Part shown: in pieces, positions 93 through 21,160 of the stretch | How the letters are laid out: each line of letters begins with the position of its first letter | How positions within the stretch are numbered: the stretch's first letter is position 1 | From: Dubosiella newyorkensis | GTDB lineage: Bacteria; Bacillota_I; Bacilli_A; Erysipelotrichales; Erysipelotrichaceae | Assembly: GCF_001945605.1 (NCBI RefSeq) | Contig: NZ_MPKA01000034.1 | Location: forward strand, 1-32,000 | Length of the DNA: 32,000 nt | Direction of reading: 5' to 3' | Made by a program: the position numbers and the translations under genes | Notes under the pieces: generated by a model | Database searches by the model: none | What the model was told of the DNA's origin: nothing | Seen by the model: only the letters and a program-made list of their open reading frames with translations

Positions 93-129
93 AGTACTAT
101 AATTTCCTTTTAACTTGTAAAGTCAGGTT

Positions 130-327
130 TTAGTTATCATAAAATGAATAGGTCCATAAATCACTTTCTTTGACTTTCTGTTTTAGTTTCGGATACTCGA
201 AAAGTTCTTGCAAGGAATCAAACGAGAAGGATGGATCGCTTCCGATCAAATCCAAGCGATATTCATTTTCTCTAACCACATAAATGTTCTCTAGATCCGG
301 TTGATGGATAGGAAGATCGGCTTTCAT
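130..327 (-). CDS. Small acidic hypothetical protein (65 aa), last gene of the nuclease cassette
   Basis: Open frame from the ORF track. I prefer the ATG at 327 because it overlaps the TGA of the upstream ORF as ATGA (324-327); the track start at 339 is a TTG. No family recognised. Confidence 0.5.
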   Translation of the reverse strand: MKADLPIHQPDLENIYVVRENEYRLDLIGSDPSFSFDSLQELFEYPKLKQKVKESDLWTYSFYDN

Positions 328-731
328 GGCTTCTTGCAAAGCAGAACGATCTGATCAAGAAGCATTTCTTCTTCTTTTTCGCTTAAAGTATGGTATTTCT
401 TGAATTCCTTTAAAGAGAGTTCATTAGGATACAAAAGCTCGATCCGCCATCCAATCTCCTGCTGATTTTTCAAGACTTCATATTCTTCAAATTTTAACAA
501 ATGCGAATTTTCTGTTTGGATCAGCAACCGATCGATCTTTTTTTGTAAGTTTTTTAAAGAAGACAAGCTCTCTTCCTCGATCGTATTCAAGTCTTTTCCG
601 AGTCTTAAAGCATCGAAAACATCCAATTGTTCTTTCGGAAAGGAAATGGTCTTGCGCTTTTTGATCGTCTCGTTCACCAAAACAAGACTTTCTTGCGGAT
701 CTAGATCGACCAATTTTGTATACTTCATCAT
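324..731 (-). CDS. Acidic hypothetical protein (135 aa); possible nuclease inhibitor/immunity partner (inference only)
   Basis: Its start ATG overlaps the nuclease stop as ATGA (728-731). The protein is Glu/Leu/Lys-rich and lacks a signal peptide. No family recognised. Confidence 0.55.
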   Translation of the reverse strand: MMKYTKLVDLDPQESLVLVNETIKKRKTISFPKEQLDVFDALRLGKDLNTIEEESLSSLKNLQKKIDRLLIQTENSHLLKFEEYEVLKNQQEIGWRIELLYPNELSLKEFKKYHTLSEKEEEMLLDQIVLLCKKP

Positions 732-1597
732 TTTTTATTCTCCTTTATACATTGAGCATGAACTGAATACCCTTCTTGTTCAAGATGCTCGAGCGAGTCA
801 CGGACAAACTTTTTATTCTTGGTGTTCATTGATTTTACAGAAGAACAATCTGGACTATGGATCTTTTTGGTTTTTGTATTCAAAACAAACGTTTGTTCTT
901 TAGAACGATCGGATCGTGTTGGATTGCTTCCATCTTCCCAACTATCTCCATTGGCATAATCGATCTGGATCCCAGGCTGCACATTAAAACAATAGACATG
1001 AAAGGAAATCCCTTCCCCTTGATCTTCGACAGACAAGGCTTCCATTTCAACTCCTTTTGCGACTAGATTTGAGTCATCATAAATCGGGATCACTCGATAC
1101 ATGACGTGATTGCCTGTTTCTTTAATATAATCTCGAACCATGTTTTCAAAAGGAAGCATCCCTTTTGTATTCAAATACCGAGTTCCGGTGATCAAGTTGT
1201 TTGGATTTGCATCTTCGCCCGAAAGTGACCATGCGATCAAATGGCAGCGATTGTATAAACTGCCTCCCTCGACTTGATCATATCGTACCGATTGCCATCC
1301 GCTTGGCTTTACTTGATGAATATCGCCTCTCTCTTTTGTAGGAAGGAGATCTTTTCCTAAGCTTGCGAAAGCGCCCGTCGACCTTCCTAAGGAATCGAGC
1401 GGATAATAGGTTTCAAAGGATGTCGTAGTAATCTCATCTTCGTTGAAGGACGGGATATTGTCATCGATCGCAATATATGGGACATTGGAATAATCAGGAA
1501 GCGTATCAAGGGATACACTTGGCTTGATCTGGGCCTGACAAGCCGTGAATCCAAAGACGAGCCAAAAAGAAAGAAAGAGCTGTAGCCATTTTTTCAT
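728..1597 (-). CDS. Lipoprotein DNA/RNA non-specific endonuclease (EndA / DNA-entry-nuclease-like)
   Basis: N-terminal signal with lipobox-like FGFTAC. The core motif NRCHLIAWSLSGEDANPNNLITGTRYLN...FENMV resembles the (D/N)RGH-type catalytic motif of Endonuclease_NS_2/EndA nucleases. The C-terminal HSPDC...HAQC motif looks like a small metal-binding module. ATGA overlap occurs on both sides. Confidence 0.8.
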   Translation of the reverse strand: MKKWLQLFLSFWLVFGFTACQAQIKPSVSLDTLPDYSNVPYIAIDDNIPSFNEDEITTTSFETYYPLDSLGRSTGAFASLGKDLLPTKERGDIHQVKPSGWQSVRYDQVEGGSLYNRCHLIAWSLSGEDANPNNLITGTRYLNTKGMLPFENMVRDYIKETGNHVMYRVIPIYDDSNLVAKGVEMEALSVEDQGEGISFHVYCFNVQPGIQIDYANGDSWEDGSNPTRSDRSKEQTFVLNTKTKKIHSPDCSSVKSMNTKNKKFVRDSLEHLEQEGYSVHAQCIKENKK

Positions 1598-1971
1598 CGA
1601 ACGTACTCCTCTTTATCGATTCGCGGATGCGAATACCCTTCCAATGTCGTAACGTTTTTTAGAACCATCTTTTTAAGATCGAAAGTCAGCTTGATATCAC
1701 TTGGATAAAGCTCGTCAAAACGATAGAGTATCAACTCGTCGATCACCCAATCTTTCGGAATATCTTCTTCTAGAAACACAATAGGTTTATCGTCAAGATC
1801 CTCGCTTATTTTCGCTCCTTCATCATTTTCAAACATCTTTTTTGAATAAGAGCTCATCCAGATCTCTTCATTTTCTGCTTCGATTTGTTCGATCACGCGT
1901 CGATCTCGAGAAACACGACGATGATTGAACAAGATCCCGTTGTCTTGATCTACACAAATGATTACTTTCAT
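1594..1971 (-). CDS. Small DHFR-fold-like hypothetical protein (125 aa)
   Basis: The N-terminus MKVIICVDQDNGILFNHRRVSRD and the overall pattern resemble truncated dihydrofolate-reductase-like proteins. SD GGAGGA lies at 1974-1979. The stop overlaps the nuclease start (ATGA). Confidence 0.45.
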   Translation of the reverse strand: MKVIICVDQDNGILFNHRRVSRDRRVIEQIEAENEEIWMSSYSKKMFENDEGAKISEDLDDKPIVFLEEDIPKDWVIDELILYRFDELYPSDIKLTFDLKKMVLKNVTTLEGYSHPRIDKEEYVR

Positions 1972-7793: not shown

Positions 7794-7869
7794 TGGTGCC
7801 GACGATAGGACTTGAACCTACGACCTACGCGTTACGAGTGCGTTGCACTACCAACTGTGCTACGTCGGC
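7794..7869 (-). tRNA. tRNA-Thr (anticodon CGU)
   Basis: The reverse complement folds by hand into a 76-nt cloverleaf. Acceptor is GCCGACG/CGTCGGC, D-arm GCAC-AGTTGGTA-GTGC, anticodon loop CTCGTAA (CGT), T-arm GTAGG-TTCAAGT-CCTAT, and CCA is encoded. Confidence 0.92.
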
Positions 7870-7923: not shown

Positions 7924-9273
7924 TTATTGAATGGTGTTCAATTCATTTTGATACGCTTCAATTTGCTGCTGCAAATAAGAGATCGTTTGATTGTTCGTGT
8001 CGATCGCTGCCTGCACATCTTCTCCGGCCGCTTGATCTGCGAGCAAGGATGCGTTATAGGCTTGAGCGTCATTTAATTGCGAAGTCAGTGATTCGATTTG
8101 GGCTTCTAAATTTGCCTTGCGTTCTTCTTTAGCTGCTTGTGCTGCTTGATTGGCCGCCTCTTGATTGGCTGCGTCTTGAGTAGCGAGAAGTGTCGCGAAA
8201 CTTTGTTGCGACTGTTCGATCGCGATTTGGTCGATCTTTTGTTTGAGGGCGTCCGAGAGCGCGTTATACCGATCACGATAGTTGACGATATTTGCTTTAT
8301 CCGCGTCATCTTTTGTCGACCAGTTCGAAATATAGGCTACGAGCTCTTGATATTCTGGCTTCGTTTCATCCTCTTGCTGTGTCTTCAATTCTTTCATACT
8401 AGCAAGCTGACTCGTAAATGGCTGCGTCGTTTGTTCGATAAAATACTCGTTGATCTTTTTCTTTTGTTTTTCGAGCATCTCGTCATAGCTGGATTCTAGA
8501 TCGATGATTTCCATTTTCTCCGCTTCTGAAAGCATGTCCCATTCATCCGCGTATTCCACAAGTTTTTTGTAGGTCGCTTCTTGTTGCGCGTTGGTGATGT
8601 TGTTTGGATCATAAACAGCGACTTTATAGGTATAGCCTCCTAGCAACAGTACGAATACGATCACGAACGCGAAGATCTGCTTGCGGTAAGGTTTGAGGTT
8701 CTTGATCCATTCAGGGGGTTGTTTCGCTTTTTTTGGAGCTCCCTTTTCTTCTGCTTTCTTTTGTTCTTCTTTATTTTTTTCCGTTCTAGAGCGGATCGGC
8801 TGATCCAAGGCTTTATTTCTTTCTTTTTTGGTTTTTTCCTTTTTCTTTTTAACAGGTTTGAGATGAGTTGGCTTTTTCGATTCCTCTTTGTTTTTTTGTT
8901 CATGATGTTCTATAGAAGTATAGATCGAATTGAGCGCTTCATTGTTTTGGAGAGGATCTTTTCGGATCGAAGAAGAGGTGAATTCATCGATATCCTTCTC
9001 TTCATCAAAATCGGTTTCATTAGCATATTGTTTCTCTTCCTCTTCGATAGGAAGTTGTCCTCTTTCTTGGCGAAGCAGGTCAAGAGCACTCGAAAGCGTT
9101 TTTTCCACTTGTTTTTTTTGGGTCGACGAAAGTGGGCTGCTGTTTTTATTTTCGTTCTTTTCTTCTGGATATAGAGCCATTTCTGTCTTTTTATGAAGAA
9201 GAGCTTTTGCGAAGTCGTCGATCTGCTCTTGATTGTTTTTATTTTCTGGATTAGTGTTTTTATTCATCTGCAT
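7924..9273 (-). CDS. Lys/Glu-rich single-pass membrane protein with C-terminal coiled-coil ectodomain (hypothetical)
   Basis: 449-aa ORF. The N-terminal ~200 aa are low-complexity K/E/N-rich, followed by one TM helix (IFAFVIVFVLLLGGYTY). The C-terminal region is helical and Q/A/E-rich (AANQEAANQAAQAAKEERKANLEAQIESL...). SD GGAGGA lies upstream. No family recognised. Confidence 0.7.
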   Translation of the reverse strand: MQMNKNTNPENKNNQEQIDDFAKALLHKKTEMALYPEEKNENKNSSPLSSTQKKQVEKTLSSALDLLRQERGQLPIEEEEKQYANETDFDEEKDIDEFTSSSIRKDPLQNNEALNSIYTSIEHHEQKNKEESKKPTHLKPVKKKKEKTKKERNKALDQPIRSRTEKNKEEQKKAEEKGAPKKAKQPPEWIKNLKPYRKQIFAFVIVFVLLLGGYTYKVAVYDPNNITNAQQEATYKKLVEYADEWDMLSEAEKMEIIDLESSYDEMLEKQKKKINEYFIEQTTQPFTSQLASMKELKTQQEDETKPEYQELVAYISNWSTKDDADKANIVNYRDRYNALSDALKQKIDQIAIEQSQQSFATLLATQDAANQEAANQAAQAAKEERKANLEAQIESLTSQLNDAQAYNASLLADQAAGEDVQAAIDTNNQTISYLQQQIEAYQNELNTIQ

Positions 9274-9360: not shown

Positions 9361-9444
9361 TGGTGCGGGCGAAGGGACTCGAACCCCCACGCCGAAGGCG
9401 CCAGATCCTAAGTCTGGTGCGTCTGCCAATTTCGCCACGCCCGC
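9361..9444 (-). tRNA. tRNA-Leu (anticodon UAG), type II with long variable arm
   Basis: The reverse complement is GCGGGCGTGGCGAAATTGGCAGACGCACCAGACTTAGGATCTGGCGCCTTCGGCGTGGGGGTTCGAGTCCCTTCGCCCGCACCA. It has a 7-bp acceptor stem, anticodon stem CCAGA/TCTGG with loop CTTAGGA, variable-arm hairpin GCC-TTCG-GGC, a T-loop TTCGAGT and encoded CCA. Confidence 0.92.
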
Positions 9445-11691: not shown

Positions 11692-12843
11692 ATGAGTTCA
11701 CAGCCGGATTGGAAAGATATAGGAAGAAGCTTTTCGCACGCGATGAAAAACGCGATGAATACTTTGGATTTCAGCGAACTGAATCAATCGATCGAAAAGA
11801 CGGTAAAAGCCACCTCTTCCCTGATCAACGATAAGATCCAGTCGTATTCCAAGGCAAAGCCCAGTTCAATCAAAGCCAAATACAATGTCCAAATCATAAG
11901 CGATTTAGAAAAATCGAGCAGCCGAAAATTAAAGATCAATCAGTGGATCAAAAATTTCGGGATCTTTCTAGTCGCCTTTTCCCTGCTGCTCGTTTTATTA
12001 TTGCTGGTTTCTTTAGGCCGCTATGCCCTTCCTGGTATTTTAGGCGCGATGTTCATCTTTATTCCAGGTTTGATCGCTTTGATCGGTGGTACAGGCGGAA
12101 TGAGCAGCGCGCGGAAAATGATCGCGTATTTAAAAAAATTCCACTTGTATTCTTCTGTGATCGGAGATCGCTCGATGGCTTCTCTAGATTCCTTATCGGC
12201 GATCGTCCCTGAAACAAAAAAAGAAACGATCGCTACACTTAAAGAGATGATCGCGGATCGTTTTTTTCTGCAAGGTCATATCAATGAAAAAAAGGAAACG
12301 TTTTACGTAACGAATGAAGCGTATGAAGCGAGTCTTCTGCCAAATGTGCCGAATCAAAAAAGCGCAAAAGAACTTTTTGATGAAGATCCTGAGACGATCC
12401 TGCCTCCTGAAGTACGGGAAGTTATCCGACAAGGCGAAGAATCGCTTGTGAAGATCAAATACTACAACGAAAAAATTCCTGATCCGATCATCACGCAAAA
12501 GCTTTCTGATCTAGAAAACAACATTCGACATATTCTTGGGTATCTTGAAGAGCATCCTGAAAATGTGGATGATACCAAAAATATGACAAAATATTATCTT
12601 CCGACTATCGATAAGCTCTTGGATACGTATATCGAACTGAATGCCTATCCAAATCCGGGGGAAAATATTCGAAAGTCGAAGAAAGAGATCGAAGATACTC
12701 TTGATACGTTGAATTACGCTTTCGCCAAGCTCTACGACGATCTATTCCAAATGACTTCGATAGAAGTCGCTTCGGATATTTCGGTTTTAGAAACATTGCT
12801 TGCGAAGGAAGGATTGACAAAAGAAAAAATAAAAGTTCGATAA
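11692..12843 (+). CDS. XpaC-like (5-bromo-4-chloroindolyl phosphate hydrolysis family) membrane protein
   Basis: Two central TM helices and a helical C-terminal domain (KYYLPTIDKLLDTYIEL...), located immediately upstream of a TelA-family gene as in the B. subtilis xpaC-yaaN pair. Family assignment rests on architecture and context. Confidence 0.55.
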   Translation: MSSQPDWKDIGRSFSHAMKNAMNTLDFSELNQSIEKTVKATSSLINDKIQSYSKAKPSSIKAKYNVQIISDLEKSSSRKLKINQWIKNFGIFLVAFSLLLVLLLLVSLGRYALPGILGAMFIFIPGLIALIGGTGGMSSARKMIAYLKKFHLYSSVIGDRSMASLDSLSAIVPETKKETIATLKEMIADRFFLQGHINEKKETFYVTNEAYEASLLPNVPNQKSAKELFDEDPETILPPEVREVIRQGEESLVKIKYYNEKIPDPIITQKLSDLENNIRHILGYLEEHPENVDDTKNMTKYYLPTIDKLLDTYIELNAYPNPGENIRKSKKEIEDTLDTLNYAFAKLYDDLFQMTSIEVASDISVLETLLAKEGLTKEKIKVR

Positions 12844-12863
12844 CGAACAGAAAGGATCCTCTT

Positions 12864-14039
12864 ATGAGTGAAGAAAACAAAGAAACGATCACATTGACAC
12901 TTGATCCAGAAAGCGAAGCCACTACAACCGTTTTGACAGAGCCCATTTTAACGTCTCCAAAACAAGAAATCGAAAAACCATCGGAGCCTCTTGCGGACAT
13001 CAAGATCGATCCAGGCCTTTTCAATGAACAAGAAATGAAGGCGATCGACGATTTTGCGCAAAAGATCAACATCAAAGACACGAATCAAATCATTCAATAT
13101 GGAAGCGCTCCGCAAAAAAAGCTGGCGGATTTCTCAGAAAAAACGTTAGAAAGCGTAAAAACGAAAGACCTTGGCGAGGTTGGCGAGCTTTTGAGTTCTG
13201 TCGTCATCGAGCTAAAAGAAACCGATATCGATGATGAAGAGAAAAAAGGCATTTTCGGCTTGTTCAATAAAGGAAAAAACAAGTTGGAAGTCATGAAGAC
13301 CCGTTACGCGAAAGCGGAAACGAATGTAGAAAAAGTGGCTGAAAACTTGGAAAACCAGCAAGTCGTGCTGATCAAGGACAATGCGATGCTCGATCAAATG
13401 TACAACTTGAACGCCCAATATTTTAAAGAGCTTTCGATGTATATTTTAGCAGGAAAGAAAAAGCTCCAGGAAGTCGAAGCCAAAGATCTTCCAGAAGCAA
13501 AAGCCAAGGCGGAAAGGACCCAATTGCCAGAAGACGCCCAAGCCTATCAAGATCTTGTTTCCTTTGTCGATCGATTTGAGAAAAAACTATACGACCTTGA
13601 GCTTTCCAGAATGATCGCGATCCAGACAGCTCCACAATTAAGGATGCTTCAAAGTTCAAATTCTGTCATGATCGACAAGATCCAAACCACTCTTGTGAAT
13701 ACGATTCCGCTATGGAAAAATCAGCTTGTGCTCGCTTTTGGCTTGAATCACGCTAAGCAAGCTGCCAAAGCTCAACGCGAAGTTACAAATATGACCAACG
13801 AGTTGTTGAAGAAAAACGCCGATACTCTCCATCTTGCCGCCACCGAAACCGCAAAAGAAACGAATCGGGGCATCGTGGATATCGAGACGCTTCAGCATAC
13901 CAATGAAAAGCTCATCCAAACCTTTGATGAAGTTCTCCAGATCCAGGCGGAAGGCAGAAAAAAACGCCAAGAAGCCGAATCTCAAATGTTGGCGATGGAA
14001 CAACAGCTCAAACAAAAAATGTTGGAAATTCGTCGATAA
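12864..14039 (+). CDS. telA: TelA/YaaN-family toxic anion resistance protein
   Basis: Characteristic TelA pattern (QIIQYGSAPQKKLADFSEKTLESVKTKDLGEVGELLSSVV...,MLDQMYNLN..YFKEL..YI.AGK) in an all-helical ~390 aa protein. SD AAAGGA. Confidence 0.85.
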   Translation: MSEENKETITLTLDPESEATTTVLTEPILTSPKQEIEKPSEPLADIKIDPGLFNEQEMKAIDDFAQKINIKDTNQIIQYGSAPQKKLADFSEKTLESVKTKDLGEVGELLSSVVIELKETDIDDEEKKGIFGLFNKGKNKLEVMKTRYAKAETNVEKVAENLENQQVVLIKDNAMLDQMYNLNAQYFKELSMYILAGKKKLQEVEAKDLPEAKAKAERTQLPEDAQAYQDLVSFVDRFEKKLYDLELSRMIAIQTAPQLRMLQSSNSVMIDKIQTTLVNTIPLWKNQLVLAFGLNHAKQAAKAQREVTNMTNELLKKNADTLHLAATETAKETNRGIVDIETLQHTNEKLIQTFDEVLQIQAEGRKKRQEAESQMLAMEQQLKQKMLEIRR

Positions 14040-16915: not shown

Positions 16916-16943
16916 AAAAAAAATGAAACTCAGCGAGTTTCAT
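16916..16943 (-). terminator. Rho-independent terminator after the DUF4317-like/3-TM operon
   Basis: The minus strand reads ATGAAACT-CGCTG-AGTTTCAT followed by T8. The stem includes the stop codon at 16940-16942. Confidence 0.75.
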
Positions 16944-17488
16944 CCTAATACATTTTCAATCACGACTTTCATTACGTATAAAACAGTGGAAATCGTTAAC
17001 AAACGAACAGCCCCATTGTACATCGCTTGCTTATAGTCGAGCTCTTTTCGAAAAGAATCGATGACAAGACATAGATCGTCGATCATTTTTTGGGCCACTT
17101 CACTTGCAGGAAGTTTGTAAAGAGAAGGGATATTGAAACGAGTCGCATCGAGTTCATGTTCTCTTTTGGTCACTGAGATCTTGAGCGCGATAAAGGTTGT
17201 CAAAAGCATCCCAAGAAGCGAGGCGAGCGACAAGATTTGATACAACCCTGTGTGAATAAAAGCGATAAGAGAGCTTAGATCCCAACCTCGAAACATTTCC
17301 TTCCATTTCATATCATTGACGACCACGATCAATAAAGCCGCCATGAACGCGATCAAGATCGATACTTTCGTATAAATATCATCTTCGATCTTGATCAAGC
17401 GCTTATATTGAGTATCGCATAAAAATGCGACCATCAAATAAGAAGGTTCTACTGTTGACTGGAGAAGGTCTTCCGAATACTTATTCAT
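16940..17488 (-). CDS. Small three-TM membrane protein (hypothetical, 182 aa)
   Basis: TM1 is VSILIAFMAALLIVVV and TM2 is LIAFIHTGLYQILSLASLLGMLLTTFIAL. A ~55-aa charged helical segment follows, then TM3 (AVRLLTISTVLYVMKVVI) at the extreme C-terminus. A strong SD (GAAGGAGAG) lies 10 nt after the upstream stop. Confidence 0.7.
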   Translation of the reverse strand: MNKYSEDLLQSTVEPSYLMVAFLCDTQYKRLIKIEDDIYTKVSILIAFMAALLIVVVNDMKWKEMFRGWDLSSLIAFIHTGLYQILSLASLLGMLLTTFIALKISVTKREHELDATRFNIPSLYKLPASEVAQKMIDDLCLVIDSFRKELDYKQAMYNGAVRLLTISTVLYVMKVVIENVLG

Positions 17489-17498
17489 AATCTCTCCT

Positions 17499-18635
17499 TC
17501 ATGGCTTCATTTCGATCCCATTGATCTCAACGGAATCATCCAGCTCGATCACTAAGCACTTTCTGCCATTTACGATTTCAGTCTTCACTTTTGTATCTCC
17601 GCCATTTTTGACATTTACTGTAATATCCGGCACCTTGATCGCCATCTTCTGCACATTCGTCATGTTCACGGCCTTCAACTCTTGATCATCCAAGATGCTT
17701 TTATAGACGGCATCAAAATGTTCCATCGATACAGGATCGGCTCCTGAATATTCAAGAAGCTTTTTTACATCGCTTTTTGAATAGACGATCGAGCTTGGCT
17801 CTTCTTCGCTTTCTGCGATCGAATCATAAATGTTTTCATGGATATTCGTGAGGACTTCCATCGACAAGCGGTCCTCGAACATTCCGATGAGCACTTGAGC
17901 AAAACGGCTCTCTTCATCAAGTGGAGACAGCGAATAGTCTACATCTAATACATTTTCAATAAAAAAAGGATTGATCGATTTTGTATTCTTGGCATGATAG
18001 AGCACATGATTGACATCGCTTGCTCTTTCTGAAAAACACGGATATAAAAACGCATCCACTGGATCGGCTTTGATTTCCATATCAATATTGACTTTACGTT
18101 CTACTTGATTGTTTTCTCGATTATAATACAATCCGATCTTTGTTTGATCGACCGGACAGATCGAAACCAGCATGAAGCGATAGGTATATCCATCTTCATA
18201 GCTCGCTTCTAGATTTTTTGATTTAAGAGGAACGGAATATTCACCGAAAGCCATCGTGATGAACACAGTATTGGAGTAATGCCCTTCCTCTATGATTTTT
18301 TGGACTAAGCTTCGAAAGGAGTCTTCATCCTCTAATTGGTTTTTTACGATCTCGTACAGTTGTTCTTGCATTGGATTTGGCTTTCCATCCACTCTAGGAA
18401 AACCAAATTCCAGCAAATTCTTGCCTAAGGTTCCGGCCAAGGATTTTTTGAAAATCTCAATATATAGATCGCCTTCCTCTTGCGATAAAAGACTAAAATC
18501 TTTCATATCATAGCTCAAGATTTTTTTTTGTTCCGAATTGATCAAGGCATACGCGCTAGCGACTTTTGAAATATAGAGCAGTTCGTTTTCCCAAGTGATT
18601 TGTCGCTTTAGTTCTGCAAGTTCTTTTTTATTCAT
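17499..18635 (-). CDS. DUF4317-like cytoplasmic protein (378 aa)
   Basis: The N-terminus MNKKELAELKRQ... and overall size and composition resemble DUF4317-family proteins of Clostridia/Erysipelotrichia. This is recognised from memory, not verified. SD GGAGGA. Confidence 0.6.
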   Translation of the reverse strand: MNKKELAELKRQITWENELLYISKVASAYALINSEQKKILSYDMKDFSLLSQEEGDLYIEIFKKSLAGTLGKNLLEFGFPRVDGKPNPMQEQLYEIVKNQLEDEDSFRSLVQKIIEEGHYSNTVFITMAFGEYSVPLKSKNLEASYEDGYTYRFMLVSICPVDQTKIGLYYNRENNQVERKVNIDMEIKADPVDAFLYPCFSERASDVNHVLYHAKNTKSINPFFIENVLDVDYSLSPLDEESRFAQVLIGMFEDRLSMEVLTNIHENIYDSIAESEEEPSSIVYSKSDVKKLLEYSGADPVSMEHFDAVYKSILDDQELKAVNMTNVQKMAIKVPDITVNVKNGGDTKVKTEIVNGRKCLVIELDDSVEINGIEMKP

Positions 18636-18749
18636 CTCTATCCTCCATTGATCTCATTGCCTATTATACATTTTTTCTAGAAAGTTTGAGATCTAGAAAG
18701 CAGAAGCACATAACGCGTTTTCAATATAGAAGCGTGATAGGGTGAAGTT

Positions 18750-19451
18750 ATGACGATCAGTAAACAAGAATTCTTAAGACAGTGCACCGAATTCGAGAAT
18801 TTGATGCGCCATAAGTACAAGCTTCAGGAAAACGAGTCTCCTTATTATGAATTTGCGCATCTGCCTGAATTCAAAGAATATATTGACGATATTAATGTGA
18901 TCCGGATCTTGCGCAACACTTATGTCCACAATAATACTTTGATCAATGGAGAAGAAGCGTTCGAGATCAAGCCTGTGATCGAAAACGCATTGAACGAGAT
19001 CATGGAAAAGCTAAAAAATCCTCCGATCGTTCAAAGCATATATACTTCGAAGGTGATCAGCGCCAAACCAAATGATCGAGTCTGGACTACGATGTATACG
19101 ATGAAAGAAAAAGGCATTTCTTATGTACCCGTCTTGGAAAACAAACATGTTATTGGTGTCTTCAGCAAAACAACGATCTTCGACGCCTTGATCGACCACA
19201 CCGTCATCAAAAAGAACGAAACGATTGGCGACTTGCTCAGATTCTTGCCCAACGATTCTGATTCCTATCAAGAATATGATTTTATAGGGATCCACGATTC
19301 GATCGAACATGCGCGGCAAATGTTTATGAAACTGAGAAAAAAGCCGCTCGAATTGTTGTTTGTCACCCAGAATGGTTCGAAAAACGAGCCACTGATAGGG
19401 GTTCTTAGTCCGTATGATCTTTTGAAGGATCGTAGCGAAGATCAAATATAG
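18750..19451 (+). CDS. HEPN-like (Rx4H) N-terminal domain fused to a CBS-pair domain
   Basis: Residues 1-90 are helical and carry IRILRNTYVHNN (R55-N-x3-H60, nt 18912-18929), which matches the HEPN Rx4-6H motif. Residues ~95-233 show two CBS-like repeats (VISAKPNDRVWTTMYTMKEKGISYVPVLENKHVIGVFS; ...LELLFVTQNGSKNEPLIGVLSPYDLL). SD AGGGTGA. Confidence 0.65.
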   Translation: MTISKQEFLRQCTEFENLMRHKYKLQENESPYYEFAHLPEFKEYIDDINVIRILRNTYVHNNTLINGEEAFEIKPVIENALNEIMEKLKNPPIVQSIYTSKVISAKPNDRVWTTMYTMKEKGISYVPVLENKHVIGVFSKTTIFDALIDHTVIKKNETIGDLLRFLPNDSDSYQEYDFIGIHDSIEHARQMFMKLRKKPLELLFVTQNGSKNEPLIGVLSPYDLLKDRSEDQI

Positions 19452-20010
19452 AAGCCTCTTCATTCAAGATCCGAGTTTTATAGAGCAGAAAGCCGTTATG
19501 GAGATATTTCTGCTTTTTATGTTCTTCATCCGTTTCAATGATGCAAAGGCATCCTCTTTCCTTCGCCATTTCTTTGGCGTCTTTGAGCAAGCGGCTCATA
19601 TATCCGTGATTCCACGCCTCTTGTTTGACGGCGAGCAATTCGATATGGATAAAAGACTTCCCTTCTTTCCTCAATTGGATTTCTTGCGAACTGCCTCCTC
19701 TTGAGCCAAACTCCATATTTTTATAAAGATCCTTCCATCCTAGGATCTTGATCATGCCAATCAGTAGTCGAAAATACGCGAAAATAGGCGTTACACTTTT
19801 CTCATCGGAGATCAGCATGACTGCTTGATCATCCAACGAATAAATTGCACAATATTCAAGCATAACCGATATATTCAATAAAATATATCGTTCGATCTTT
19901 TCTTTGTTTTTGAAATGATAAAAAGAGGCGCTTGGATACGGGTAGAAGGCAAATGCTTTTGCGATCCAAGCTCTCTCTTGCGTACCTAACGTTAACTTTC
20001 TTATAGCCAT
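19405..20010 (-). CDS. GNAT-family N-acetyltransferase
   Basis: Acetyl-CoA binding region LLAVKQEAWNHGYMSRLLKDAKEMAKERG and the C-terminal ETD....YLHNGF pattern. The 3' end overlaps the convergent CBS gene by 47 nt. No obvious SD. Confidence 0.7.
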   Translation of the reverse strand: MAIRKLTLGTQERAWIAKAFAFYPYPSASFYHFKNKEKIERYILLNISVMLEYCAIYSLDDQAVMLISDEKSVTPIFAYFRLLIGMIKILGWKDLYKNMEFGSRGGSSQEIQLRKEGKSFIHIELLAVKQEAWNHGYMSRLLKDAKEMAKERGCLCIIETDEEHKKQKYLHNGFLLYKTRILNEEASIFDLRYDPSKDHTD

Positions 20011-20089: not shown

Positions 20090-21160
20090 ATGAAACGATA
20101 TTCCTTAAGAAAAGCAAGCGTCCTATTGATGGCGGCTATGATCGGACTAGCGCCTCAATATCTCTATGCTGCTGAAAAAGAAAAAAGTGAGCCGACCAAC
20201 ACAAATGCGGCTCTATTTAAAACACTGGATGAGCAAAAAGAAGCTCTGAAAGAATACCCGATCCTTTTTTCAGCTGGATTTAACGCGTTCAAAAACCAAA
20301 CCGATGATGGAACCTATATCATTCCTGGGCTACTACATACCCAAAGTCTCAGCAAAGAAGGTAAAGTGAGCGAATGCGATGAAATGACACCACAAGGTGT
20401 GGCTGTCGTGGATGATTATATTATGATCAGCGCGTATTGTTATGAGCATGAACACAACAGCGTCATTTATGTTTTGGATCGAAAAAATCACAACTATTTA
20501 AAAACGCTCGTTTTAAATGGTATGCCGCATGCCGGAAGTATCGCCTACGATCCTTTGAACCGTAATCTTTGGATCGCCACAAAAAATGAAAAAAGAGATC
20601 GTGGTGCATTGTCCTACATCAGTCTTGCGAAAATCGATACGTATGATTTTGCTCATGATAAGCGTGCGATCCTATACGACTATACCCTCGAGATCCCGAC
20701 TTTAAAAGATGTCTCTTTCATGACTTACTATAAAAATCAAGTTTTTTGTGGATATTTTTCAAACGATGATAAGAATTTGAAAGTTTATACCTATGATATT
20801 GATCCGATGACAGGCAATCTTGTCACCAACAAGCATCATACGGCGATCGCGAAAGGCATCGATCATATCGGTAATTATTGCCAAGGGATCGCGATCAATG
20901 ATGAATACATCGTTCTTGCTGCTTCCGACGGCCCTGATTTGCAATCAAAACTCAGTTTTTATAGTCGAAAAGAAAATTATTTGCTCCCAAATACAGCAGA
21001 AGAAGTCATCGATCTGCCTCCTCGTCTTGAACAGATCTACTTCAATGGCGGCAATACGCTAATCTTGAATTTCGAATCGGCGGCAAAACACTATCGAGAT
21101 GAAGGGATCTATCATATCGATCGTCTATTGAGTTTAAATGTGGATGATTTAATGAAATAG
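20090..21160 (+). CDS. Secreted hypothetical protein (356 aa)
   Basis: Signal peptide MKRYSLRKASVLLMAAMIGLAPQYLYAAE. Repeated beta-strand-rich segments (PQGVAVVDDYIMISA, GSIAYDPLNRNLWIA, CQGIAINDEYIVLAA) suggest a propeller-like fold. No family recognised. Confidence 0.65.
   Translation: MKRYSLRKASVLLMAAMIGLAPQYLYAAEKEKSEPTNTNAALFKTLDEQKEALKEYPILFSAGFNAFKNQTDDGTYIIPGLLHTQSLSKEGKVSECDEMTPQGVAVVDDYIMISAYCYEHEHNSVIYVLDRKNHNYLKTLVLNGMPHAGSIAYDPLNRNLWIATKNEKRDRGALSYISLAKIDTYDFAHDKRAILYDYTLEIPTLKDVSFMTYYKNQVFCGYFSNDDKNLKVYTYDIDPMTGNLVTNKHHTAIAKGIDHIGNYCQGIAINDEYIVLAASDGPDLQSKLSFYSRKENYLLPNTAEEVIDLPPRLEQIYFNGGNTLILNFESAAKHYRDEGIYHIDRLLSLNVDDLMK

Follow-up and report, generated by a model that had tools for sequence, protein, structure and literature searches.

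The window analysed here, a 32,000-nucleotide (nt) stretch of Dubosiella newyorkensis DNA (NZ_MPKA01000034.1, positions 1 to 32,000; GCF_001945605.1), carries a gene whose 233-amino-acid product joins a helical N-terminal domain to a pair of CBS domains. The complete gene, taken from the list of open reading frames (ORFs), starts with ATG and occupies 18750..19451 on the plus strand, stop codon included, exactly as described in an earlier reading of these letters (the sequence-only reading). We present evidence that this gene, which we refer to as the HEPN-CBS gene, likely encodes a stand-alone, self-regulated endoribonuclease. The N-terminal ~90 residues are predicted to be a minimal Swt1/Abi2-like HEPN domain with a metal-independent RNase site, and this site is probably completed across a homodimer by two R-N-x3-H motifs, as in other HEPN enzymes. 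The CBS pair, in turn, probably binds an adenosine-containing ligand (ATP, ADP or AMP, diadenosine tetraphosphate (Ap4A), cyclic di-AMP (c-di-AMP) or S-adenosylmethionine (SAM)) and probably dimerises; ligand binding would alter the hold on the two HEPN domains and thereby turn RNA cleavage either on or off. Such built-in ligand gating would explain how a potentially toxic RNase can be encoded without an antitoxin gene. The sequence data show the domain composition, conserved catalytic and ligand-site residues, purifying selection and a variable gene context; RNase activity, dimerisation, the identity of the ligand and the direction of regulation are points that we infer, chiefly from HEPN and CBS biology and from the anti-phage protein DS-11, and the biological role, the least certain point, from the gene context.

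Conservation of the R-N-x3-H motif

The protein contains the peptide IRILRNTYVHNN, in which R55, N56 and H60 (R55-N56-T-Y-V-H60) form the R-N-x3-H motif, encoded at nt 18912-18929 on the plus strand. The motif is insignificant when taken alone: the pattern R[NHDQ]xxxH is expected by chance about 0.05 times in a protein of such size and composition, and it was found once more in the 9,378 amino acids of the other main window ORFs tabulated. It is significant because it is conserved across homologues. The conservation set consisted of 141-150 full-length homologues, each representing one 50%-identity cluster, in which R55 is kept in 149/150, N56 in 146/150 and H60 in 150/150. The sequence-only reading had taken R55 to H60 as the HEPN catalytic motif and had named beforehand the conservation of these two residues as a check on which its hypothesis could fail; the peptide is present, and both residues are essentially invariant. 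Upstream of the motif, position 16 is Glu in 132 of the 150 homologues and Asp in 14 more, and position 20 is Arg or Lys in 82 (R20 in the window protein). Phe is found at position 8 in 141, and P91, at the domain junction, is kept in 127. Within the CBS part, each of the positions M118, P127, G136, F138, F178, T206, G209, G217 and D223 is conserved in 138 homologues or more.

An exhaustive homologue search over 1.84 billion cluster representatives retrieved 932 representatives at E≤1e-3, 282 of them at E≤1e-10. Of the 150 listed homologues, almost all are 225-245 amino acids long and align over their full length, and the fusion is therefore a fixed, widespread architecture. A word-indexed search with the single protein returned the query itself only, the same type of search with the N-terminal alignment returned only six truncated family fragments, and a single-protein search of GTDB genomes for related loci found no relative. 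Named members of the family come from Fusobacterium nucleatum (WP_032884806.1), Erysipelotrichaceae, Clostridia, Lachnospiraceae, Clostridium and Flexilinea. In all sources they are labelled 'CBS domain-containing protein', 'CBS domain protein', 'CBS protein' or 'hypothetical protein', and their precomputed Pfam annotation consists of CBS only.

The N-terminal domain

An AlphaFold2 (AF2) model built from a 141-sequence alignment has a mean predicted local distance difference test score (pLDDT) of 94.2 and a predicted template modelling score (pTM) of 0.85; a model from the single sequence, with a pLDDT of 44, was set aside. The helical character that had been read from the N-terminal ~90 residues is seen in this model as four helices, at residues 5-23, 31-36, 39-60 and 75-89, which are followed by the CBS pair. 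The four-helix domain spans residues 1-92 (18750..19025, plus strand) and is a probable minimal Swt1-like HEPN, a view that draws on the AF2 model, on conservation, on weak matches to HEPN profiles and on an alignment with DS-11. Its first helix bears E16-x3-R20, recognised from conservation. R-N-x3-H occupies the C-terminal end of helix 3 (39-60) and is followed in the AF2 secondary structure by a short beta-hairpin (residues 64-73) and then by helix 4 (residues 75-89).

HEPN domains have been defined by an Rx4-6H motif with a polar residue (N/D/H) after the Arg, together with an upstream acidic E-x3-[KR] (PMC3710099). The N-terminal domain has a conserved Rx4-6H with a polar residue directly after the Arg, has E16-x3-R20 as the upstream element, and agrees with the definition at the level of secondary structure in the AF2 model. 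A further line of evidence is its profile relationship to established HEPN families, which is sub-threshold but convergent. When 60 family N-termini were scanned singly against Pfam, PADLOC and NCBIfam, the weak Pfam matches were to DUF6548 (24 N-termini), DUF4145 (9), HEPN_RiboL-PSP (8), HepT-like (4), Ribonuc_2-5A/KEN (4), Abi_2 (4), HEPN_Swt1 (4), HEPN_Cthe2314 (3), HEPN_MAE_28990 (2), DUF3644 (2) and Talin_IBS2B (2). Nine of the 11 Pfam families matched by at least two N-termini are HEPN families according to PMC3710099, the exceptions being DUF6548 and Talin_IBS2B. The best single E-values were 0.0013 for HEPN_RiboL-PSP, 0.002 for HEPN_Swt1 and 0.0025 for DUF4145. The weak PADLOC matches were to Cas13b, Cas13c, several CARF-HEPN models, Csx1, AbiD, RT-HEPN and Cas13-ApeA, and the NCBIfam scan, used as a gauge of noise, gave scattered single matches, no family being matched by more than one member. 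The top match in a profile search of the PDB, at E=0.63, was the HepT toxin 6m6w, with RN...H aligned.

DUF6548 (PF20185) was both the commonest and the best-scoring Pfam match of the family N-termini (24/60, best E=2.5e-6). A score of 22 bits is obtained with the family consensus, which aligns to positions 2-92 of the 164 in the profile and leaves the C-terminal third of the profile unmatched. Against the DUF6548 threshold of 27.3 bits, the window protein gives no match, the consensus lies below the threshold, and the four DUF6548 matches obtained when ten full-length members were scanned singly were all below the cut-off. For HEPN_Swt1 (PF18731), with a threshold of 27.5 bits, the window protein again gives no match, the best member (P0154) scores 18.8 bits and the consensus 13 bits. 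Two other kinds of match were rejected: designed PPR repeats, returned by the PDB search with the family consensus, are a repeat artefact, and matches to protein A (E=1.4e-5) are sums over repeats in which each stretch has an independent E-value of at least 9. Taken together with the comparison with DS-11 described below, the profile evidence makes it likely that the N-terminal domain is a trimmed Swt1/Abi2-like HEPN.

The CBS pair

The CBS pair, or Bateman module, covers residues 93-226 (19026..19427, plus strand) and is recognised by Pfam, by PDB profiles, by Foldseek and by hhalign. The Pfam CBS model (PF00571) matches in two stretches at E=7.7e-13 (49 bits, the cut-off being 24), and the two CBS-like repeats of the sequence-only reading are thus two tandem motifs above the Pfam threshold, in a model with the predicted fold of a CBS pair. 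PDB profile matches of this part of the protein are to CBS proteins, down to E=3.8e-20, and the NCBIfam matches of the full protein are likewise to the CBS part only. The top Foldseek match is MJ0922 (E=3.5e-9, TM 0.78), followed by AcuB and CBSX2, with a CBS regulatory domain also among the matches; the nearest solved CBS pairs found by Foldseek, including AcuB, carry AMP, ADP, ATP or Ap4A.

The adenosyl-ligand site of CBS domains has the pattern G-h-h-[TS]-x-x-[DN]. The second CBS domain (CBS2; residues ~175-226, plus strand, within 19026..19427) contains the canonical ribose-binding element G217-x-x-S/T220-x-x-D223, which in the window protein reads G217-V-L-S220-P-Y-D223 and fits this pattern, and binding of an adenosyl ligand is predicted on this basis. 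G217 is found in 143/150 homologues, Thr or Ser at position 220 in 143/150 and D223 in 138/150. The first CBS domain (CBS1; residues ~94-148, plus strand, within 19026..19427) contains G136-V-F-S139-x-x-T142, with Thr in place of Asp at the last position of the site. Position 123 is Tyr or Phe in 114/150 members and Ile in the window protein. The C-terminal tail, residues 227-233 with the stop codon (19428..19451, plus strand), is not conserved, the majority of homologues terminating near residue 226.

Relationship to the anti-phage protein DS-11

DS-11 is a one-protein anti-phage system of Escherichia coli (WP_000257686.1) that combines CBS and HEPN domains and was reported with DefensePredictor (Science 2026; PMC13092281); its NCBIfam model is NF053863, 'CBS domain-containing anti-phage protein'. 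Residues 252-359 of DS-11 were assigned to HEPN_Swt1 with a probability of 0.98 in the authors' HHpred analysis, and Y157, in the CBS part, is predicted to contact adenine. Y157A abolishes defence, as does mutation of the catalytic HEPN residues, the mutants in the supplementary strain list being R330A, H335A and Y157A. DS-11 is encoded outside defence islands, and the nucleotide read by its CBS part was left open (PMC13092281). Using the DS-11 sequence from the supplement of that paper, we found 247 relatives in the GTDB species set (40-96% identity), of which 80 were collected (L017-L096) and 79 aligned. The relatives come from Proteobacteria, Acidobacteriota, Cyanobacteria, Chloroflexota, Verrucomicrobiota and Bacteroidota, with one metagenome-assembled genome of Halobacteriota. 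R330, N331 and H335 are invariant in the 79-sequence alignment, and E255 is present in 70/79.

An hhalign comparison of the N-terminal alignment of the HEPN-CBS family with the DS-11 HEPN domain gave P=4.1e-4 over 40 columns, placing R55/H60 on R330/H335 and helix 4 on helix 4; the reversed control gave P=0.48. The score of 24.0 compares with 11.0 +/- 2.2 for column shuffles (maximum 18.2), and 0/120 shuffles reached it. The helix-4 segment alone outscored all 60 shuffles. The helix-1 segment placed E16-x3-R20 on DS-11 E255-x3-R259 at a relaxed threshold, a result that is not significant, 16/60 shuffles having reached its score. The sequence-only reading had put forward the HEPN assignment tentatively, from one short motif and helical character, and had said that placement of the domain in a non-HEPN family by structure and profile searches would count against it; the profile searches, this alignment included, place the domain almost exclusively with HEPN families. 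The CBS pairs of the two families align with a probability of 96.9%, as expected for CBS pairs generally, and position 123 falls on Y157.

DS-11 and the window protein are thus alike in several respects. Each is a single polypeptide with a CBS pair and a Swt1-like HEPN bearing R-N-x3-H, each has a Glu-x3-Arg upstream of that motif, and each has Ser/Thr in CBS1 and Asp in CBS2 at the ribose-binding position, with the canonical G-h-h-[TS]-x-x-D in CBS2; both families are without a partner gene. They differ in architecture. In DS-11 (365 amino acids) an N-terminal region is followed by the CBS pair and then by the HEPN domain, whereas the 233-residue window protein lacks the ~120-residue N-terminal region and has the HEPN domain first and the CBS pair second. 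Its HEPN domain is ~30 residues shorter than that of DS-11 in the stretch from helix 1 to helix 3, and the motif is followed by a beta-hairpin. NF053863 scores 15.2 bits on the window protein against a cut-off of 260, over CBS residues 100-151 only, and the two families are therefore not orthologous. The listed relatives of DS-11 are mostly from Proteobacteria, Acidobacteria and Cyanobacteria, whereas the named HEPN-CBS members are from Clostridia, Erysipelotrichaceae, Lachnospiraceae, Fusobacterium and Flexilinea. Finally, DS-11 has an anti-phage phenotype, whereas the HEPN-CBS family is not known to have one.

Several observations weigh against the reading of the protein as a ligand-gated HEPN RNase with a housekeeping role. 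All matches to named HEPN families are below curated thresholds, and the sole weak Pfam HEPN match of the window protein itself is to HEPN_Cthe2314 (E=0.047, residues 35-68). Comparison by hhalign with a four-sequence HepT/DUF86 alignment from Bacillus plasmids gave P=0.07 and covered the motif only, the similarity to the DS-11 HEPN domain rests mainly on the motif helix and helix 4, and the Foldseek list for the whole model is saturated by CBS pairs. The window protein also departs from the family consensus next to the ligand site, with I123 for Y/F, H171D, E174Q and R199P, so that it may respond to ligand differently or less strongly. A housekeeping gene context, moreover, is compatible with defence, DS-11 itself lying outside defence islands. 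A Foldseek search of the whole model against the BFVD viral library gave nothing meaningful.

Previously described HEPN fusions

HEPN-CBS(-HD) fusions of the Abi2/Swt1 clade were described in 2013 by Anantharaman, Makarova, Burroughs, Koonin and Aravind, who suggested ligand-regulated RNA degradation and gave as examples alr3009 and gi 118580987 of Pelobacter propionicus (PMC3710099). These fusions have the same domain combination as the window protein and led to the same functional inference, and the best named HEPN match of the HEPN-CBS family is Swt1-like, as is their clade; some of them carry an extra HD phosphohydrolase domain. Relatives of DS-11 in Nostoc hint that the alr3009 type may belong to the DS-11 lineage. 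The fusion that the sequence-only reading had offered as a new concept is therefore not new, having been described with the same inference in 2013 (PMC3710099) and validated genetically for DS-11 (PMC13092281). The new element is a modest one, namely a large, distinct family that lacks annotation and combines reversed domain order with a minimal HEPN domain and a housekeeping gene context. The literature searched contained no mention of 'HEPN-CBS', 'CBS-HEPN' or DUF6548.

Control of a HEPN RNase by a nucleotide-related device, as predicted here, has counterparts in the CARF-HEPN proteins (Csm6/Csx1) and in the type VII HepT-MNT systems, whose HEPN RNases have Rx4-6H and both of which are weakly matched by the family N-termini (PADLOC, Pfam). 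The control device is a cyclic-oligoadenylate sensor domain in CARF-HEPN and AMPylation by MNT in HepT. CARF-HEPN proteins have an N-terminal CARF sensor, whereas the only non-HEPN domain of the window protein is its CBS pair; no cas genes were found in the window, and the HEPN-CBS gene has no CRISPR or Cas10 context.

Gene neighbourhood and selection

The HEPN-CBS gene is preceded by a ribosome-binding site, AGGGTGA, ~6 nt 5' of the ATG, and the gene has been called identically on an ENA metagenome contig. Its neighbours are as the sequence-only reading had them: on one side a divergent DUF4317 gene (17499-18635, minus strand; E=9e-95), beyond which lies a 182-amino-acid hydrophobic ORF, and on the other a convergent GNAT gene (19405-20010, minus strand) that overlaps the 3' end of the HEPN-CBS gene by 47 nt, an overlap that includes the non-conserved tail. 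The DUF4317 gene and the 182-amino-acid ORF form a pair (16940-18635, minus strand) that is kept in same-species contigs; the ORF has several hydrophobic segments and no Pfam match. With the DUF4317 neighbour as query, only two loci were found, both of the same species. The divergent intergenic region (18636..18749), common to the HEPN-CBS and DUF4317 genes, contains the ribosome-binding site and a perfect palindrome, TTTCTAGAAA, followed ~8 nt on by a near-copy, ATCTAGAAAG (18670-18705, read from the sequence). This palindrome pair 5' of the HEPN-CBS gene may be an operator. A simple promoter scan found no consensus sigma-70 site in the region, and Rfam and promoter/terminator scans around the gene gave nothing relevant.

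Twelve look-ups of family members yielded 11 distinct neighbourhoods, two of the look-ups being the same locus in related genomes, and no gene recurs across the 11. The neighbours have core functions and include ribosomal proteins L13/S9, Met- and Glu/Gln-tRNA synthetases, elongation factor G, RNase III, RNase J, GMP synthase, phosphotransferase system components, thiamine genes and ABC transporters. Two neighbourhoods depart from this in part. The HEPN-CBS gene of F. nucleatum has a DUF1016/YhcG nuclease-like gene upstream of it, and in one lineage (L009, L010, 4851-6699) an upstream AAA ATPase gene (PF00004 and AAA_lid_6) overlaps the HEPN-CBS start by 8 nt, which suggests a lineage-specific operon without counterpart in the other neighbourhoods. 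In one further locus unrelated to that of the window (L006), a TelA gene lies near the HEPN-CBS gene; in the window itself a TelA gene adjoins an XpaC-like gene (PF10112, 5-bromo-4-chloroindolyl phosphate hydrolysis protein) at 11692-14039 on the plus strand.

Three further metagenome contigs of this species carry the HEPN-CBS gene intact and in the same place, with 97.9-99.6% protein and 98-99.7% nucleotide identity. Relative to two of these contigs, 8 codons differ synonymously and 5 non-synonymously, and all of the differences fall outside the HEPN domain. The gene is under purifying selection.

Biological role and alternative explanations

The role that we rank first, with a confidence just short of even, is an energy- or stress-responsive tuning of RNA stability or translation. 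It is favoured because the gene stands in a core housekeeping context and has no conserved neighbour. A close second, possible but doubtful, is that the same machine has a DS-11-like, single-gene role in abortive infection or anti-phage defence, an infection-linked nucleotide signal unleashing the HEPN RNase through the CBS pair; the molecular mechanism is the same for both roles. In favour of defence, DS-11 depends on CBS residue Y157 and on HEPN residues R330/H335, the HEPN and CBS modules of the window protein align with those of DS-11, DS-11 shows that such a gene need not lie in a defence island, a DUF1016/YhcG nuclease-like gene adjoins the family member of F. nucleatum, and the weak PADLOC matches of the N-termini are all to defence HEPN proteins. 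However, PADLOC gives no match for the full window protein, the DS-11 model covers one CBS motif only and scores 15 rather than 260 bits, the domain order is reversed and the ~120-residue N-terminal region of DS-11 is absent. Moreover, the neighbours are core genes, the flanking genes shown in the 11 neighbourhoods include none for restriction-modification, Abi or mobile elements, and four independent samples of the species all have the gene intact and in the same position.

As a tentative extension of the stress-responsive reading, one we think rather unlikely in this full form, the HEPN-first family of ~230-residue proteins could be the core-genome counterpart of DS-11, a housekeeping RNase whose CBS pair reads the adenylate energy charge or an alarmone (Ap4A, c-di-AMP) and switches global cleavage of mRNA, tRNA or rRNA. 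Its hosts would be anaerobic Bacillota, Fusobacteria and some Chloroflexota. If so, the family would constitute a direct route of signalling from nucleotides to RNA decay, a route postulated in 2013 and never shown.

A less probable alternative, which we consider to have a small chance of being right, is that the N-terminal domain is a non-catalytic HEPN-like module for RNA or nucleotide binding or for dimerisation, so that the protein would be a CBS-type adaptor that, like DarB or CBSX, regulates a partner. Several HEPN families are indeed non-catalytic binders (PMC3710099), and stand-alone CBS proteins such as DarB/YkuL are among the PDB matches. The non-catalytic HEPN domains named in that work, however, have lost Rx4-6H, whereas in the HEPN-CBS family R, N and H are kept in 146-150/150 together with the upstream Glu, the pattern expected of an active site.

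We reject, as very improbable, a CcpN-like transcription factor in which an N-terminal DNA-binding domain is joined to an ATP/ADP-sensing CBS pair. Size and layout are similar, NCBIfam gives a weak CcpN match (E=0.025), and there is a palindrome in the gene's own upstream region, but the CcpN match is confined to CBS residues 100-149, no helix-turn-helix family is among the 25 most recurrent Pfam families of the 60 N-termini, the helices are long (19-22 residues), unlike those of a helix-turn-helix, and the invariant residues are R-N-x3-H with no recognition helix. Least probable of all, and likewise rejected, is the toxin of a HepT/MNT-like two-gene pair with the overlapping GNAT or another neighbour as antitoxin: HEPN toxins commonly need an antitoxin, control HepT loci have an adjacent nucleotidyltransferase, and the GNAT gene overlaps the 3' end, but neither the GNAT nor any other neighbour is kept in the other 10 neighbourhoods, none of the 11 has an adjacent MNT gene, and the fused CBS pair would be a built-in regulator.

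Should the endoribonuclease prediction hold, many genes labelled 'CBS domain-containing protein', in 932 representative clusters, would encode ligand-gated RNases, including those of the genetically tractable pathogen Fusobacterium nucleatum. The ~230-residue protein would offer a compact system in which to study how a Bateman module controls a HEPN site and which nucleotide it reads, and its housekeeping context would allow one to ask whether such switches serve physiology besides phage defence. A practical gain already at hand is that the N-terminal domain, at the edge of Pfam DUF6548, should be annotated as HEPN.

Other features of the window

The rest of the window is ordinary chromosome, with genes for RsmF, Lgt, a two-component system, a transglycosylase and others. 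At 324-1971 (minus strand) there are three tightly overlapping ORFs, the middle one of which (728-1597) encodes a DNA/RNA non-specific endonuclease (Endonuclea_NS_2, E=2e-23); the flanking ORFs, of 135 and 125 amino acids, have no Pfam match, and the arrangement resembles that of a nuclease toxin with immunity or accessory genes. Two tRNA genes (7797-7869 and 9364-9444, minus strand) flank a 449-amino-acid ORF (7924-9273) with no Pfam match. Between the GNAT gene and a gene for an SNF-family sodium symporter, a 356-amino-acid protein without a Pfam match, whose N-terminus bears a signal-like hydrophobic segment, is encoded at 20090-21160 (plus strand).

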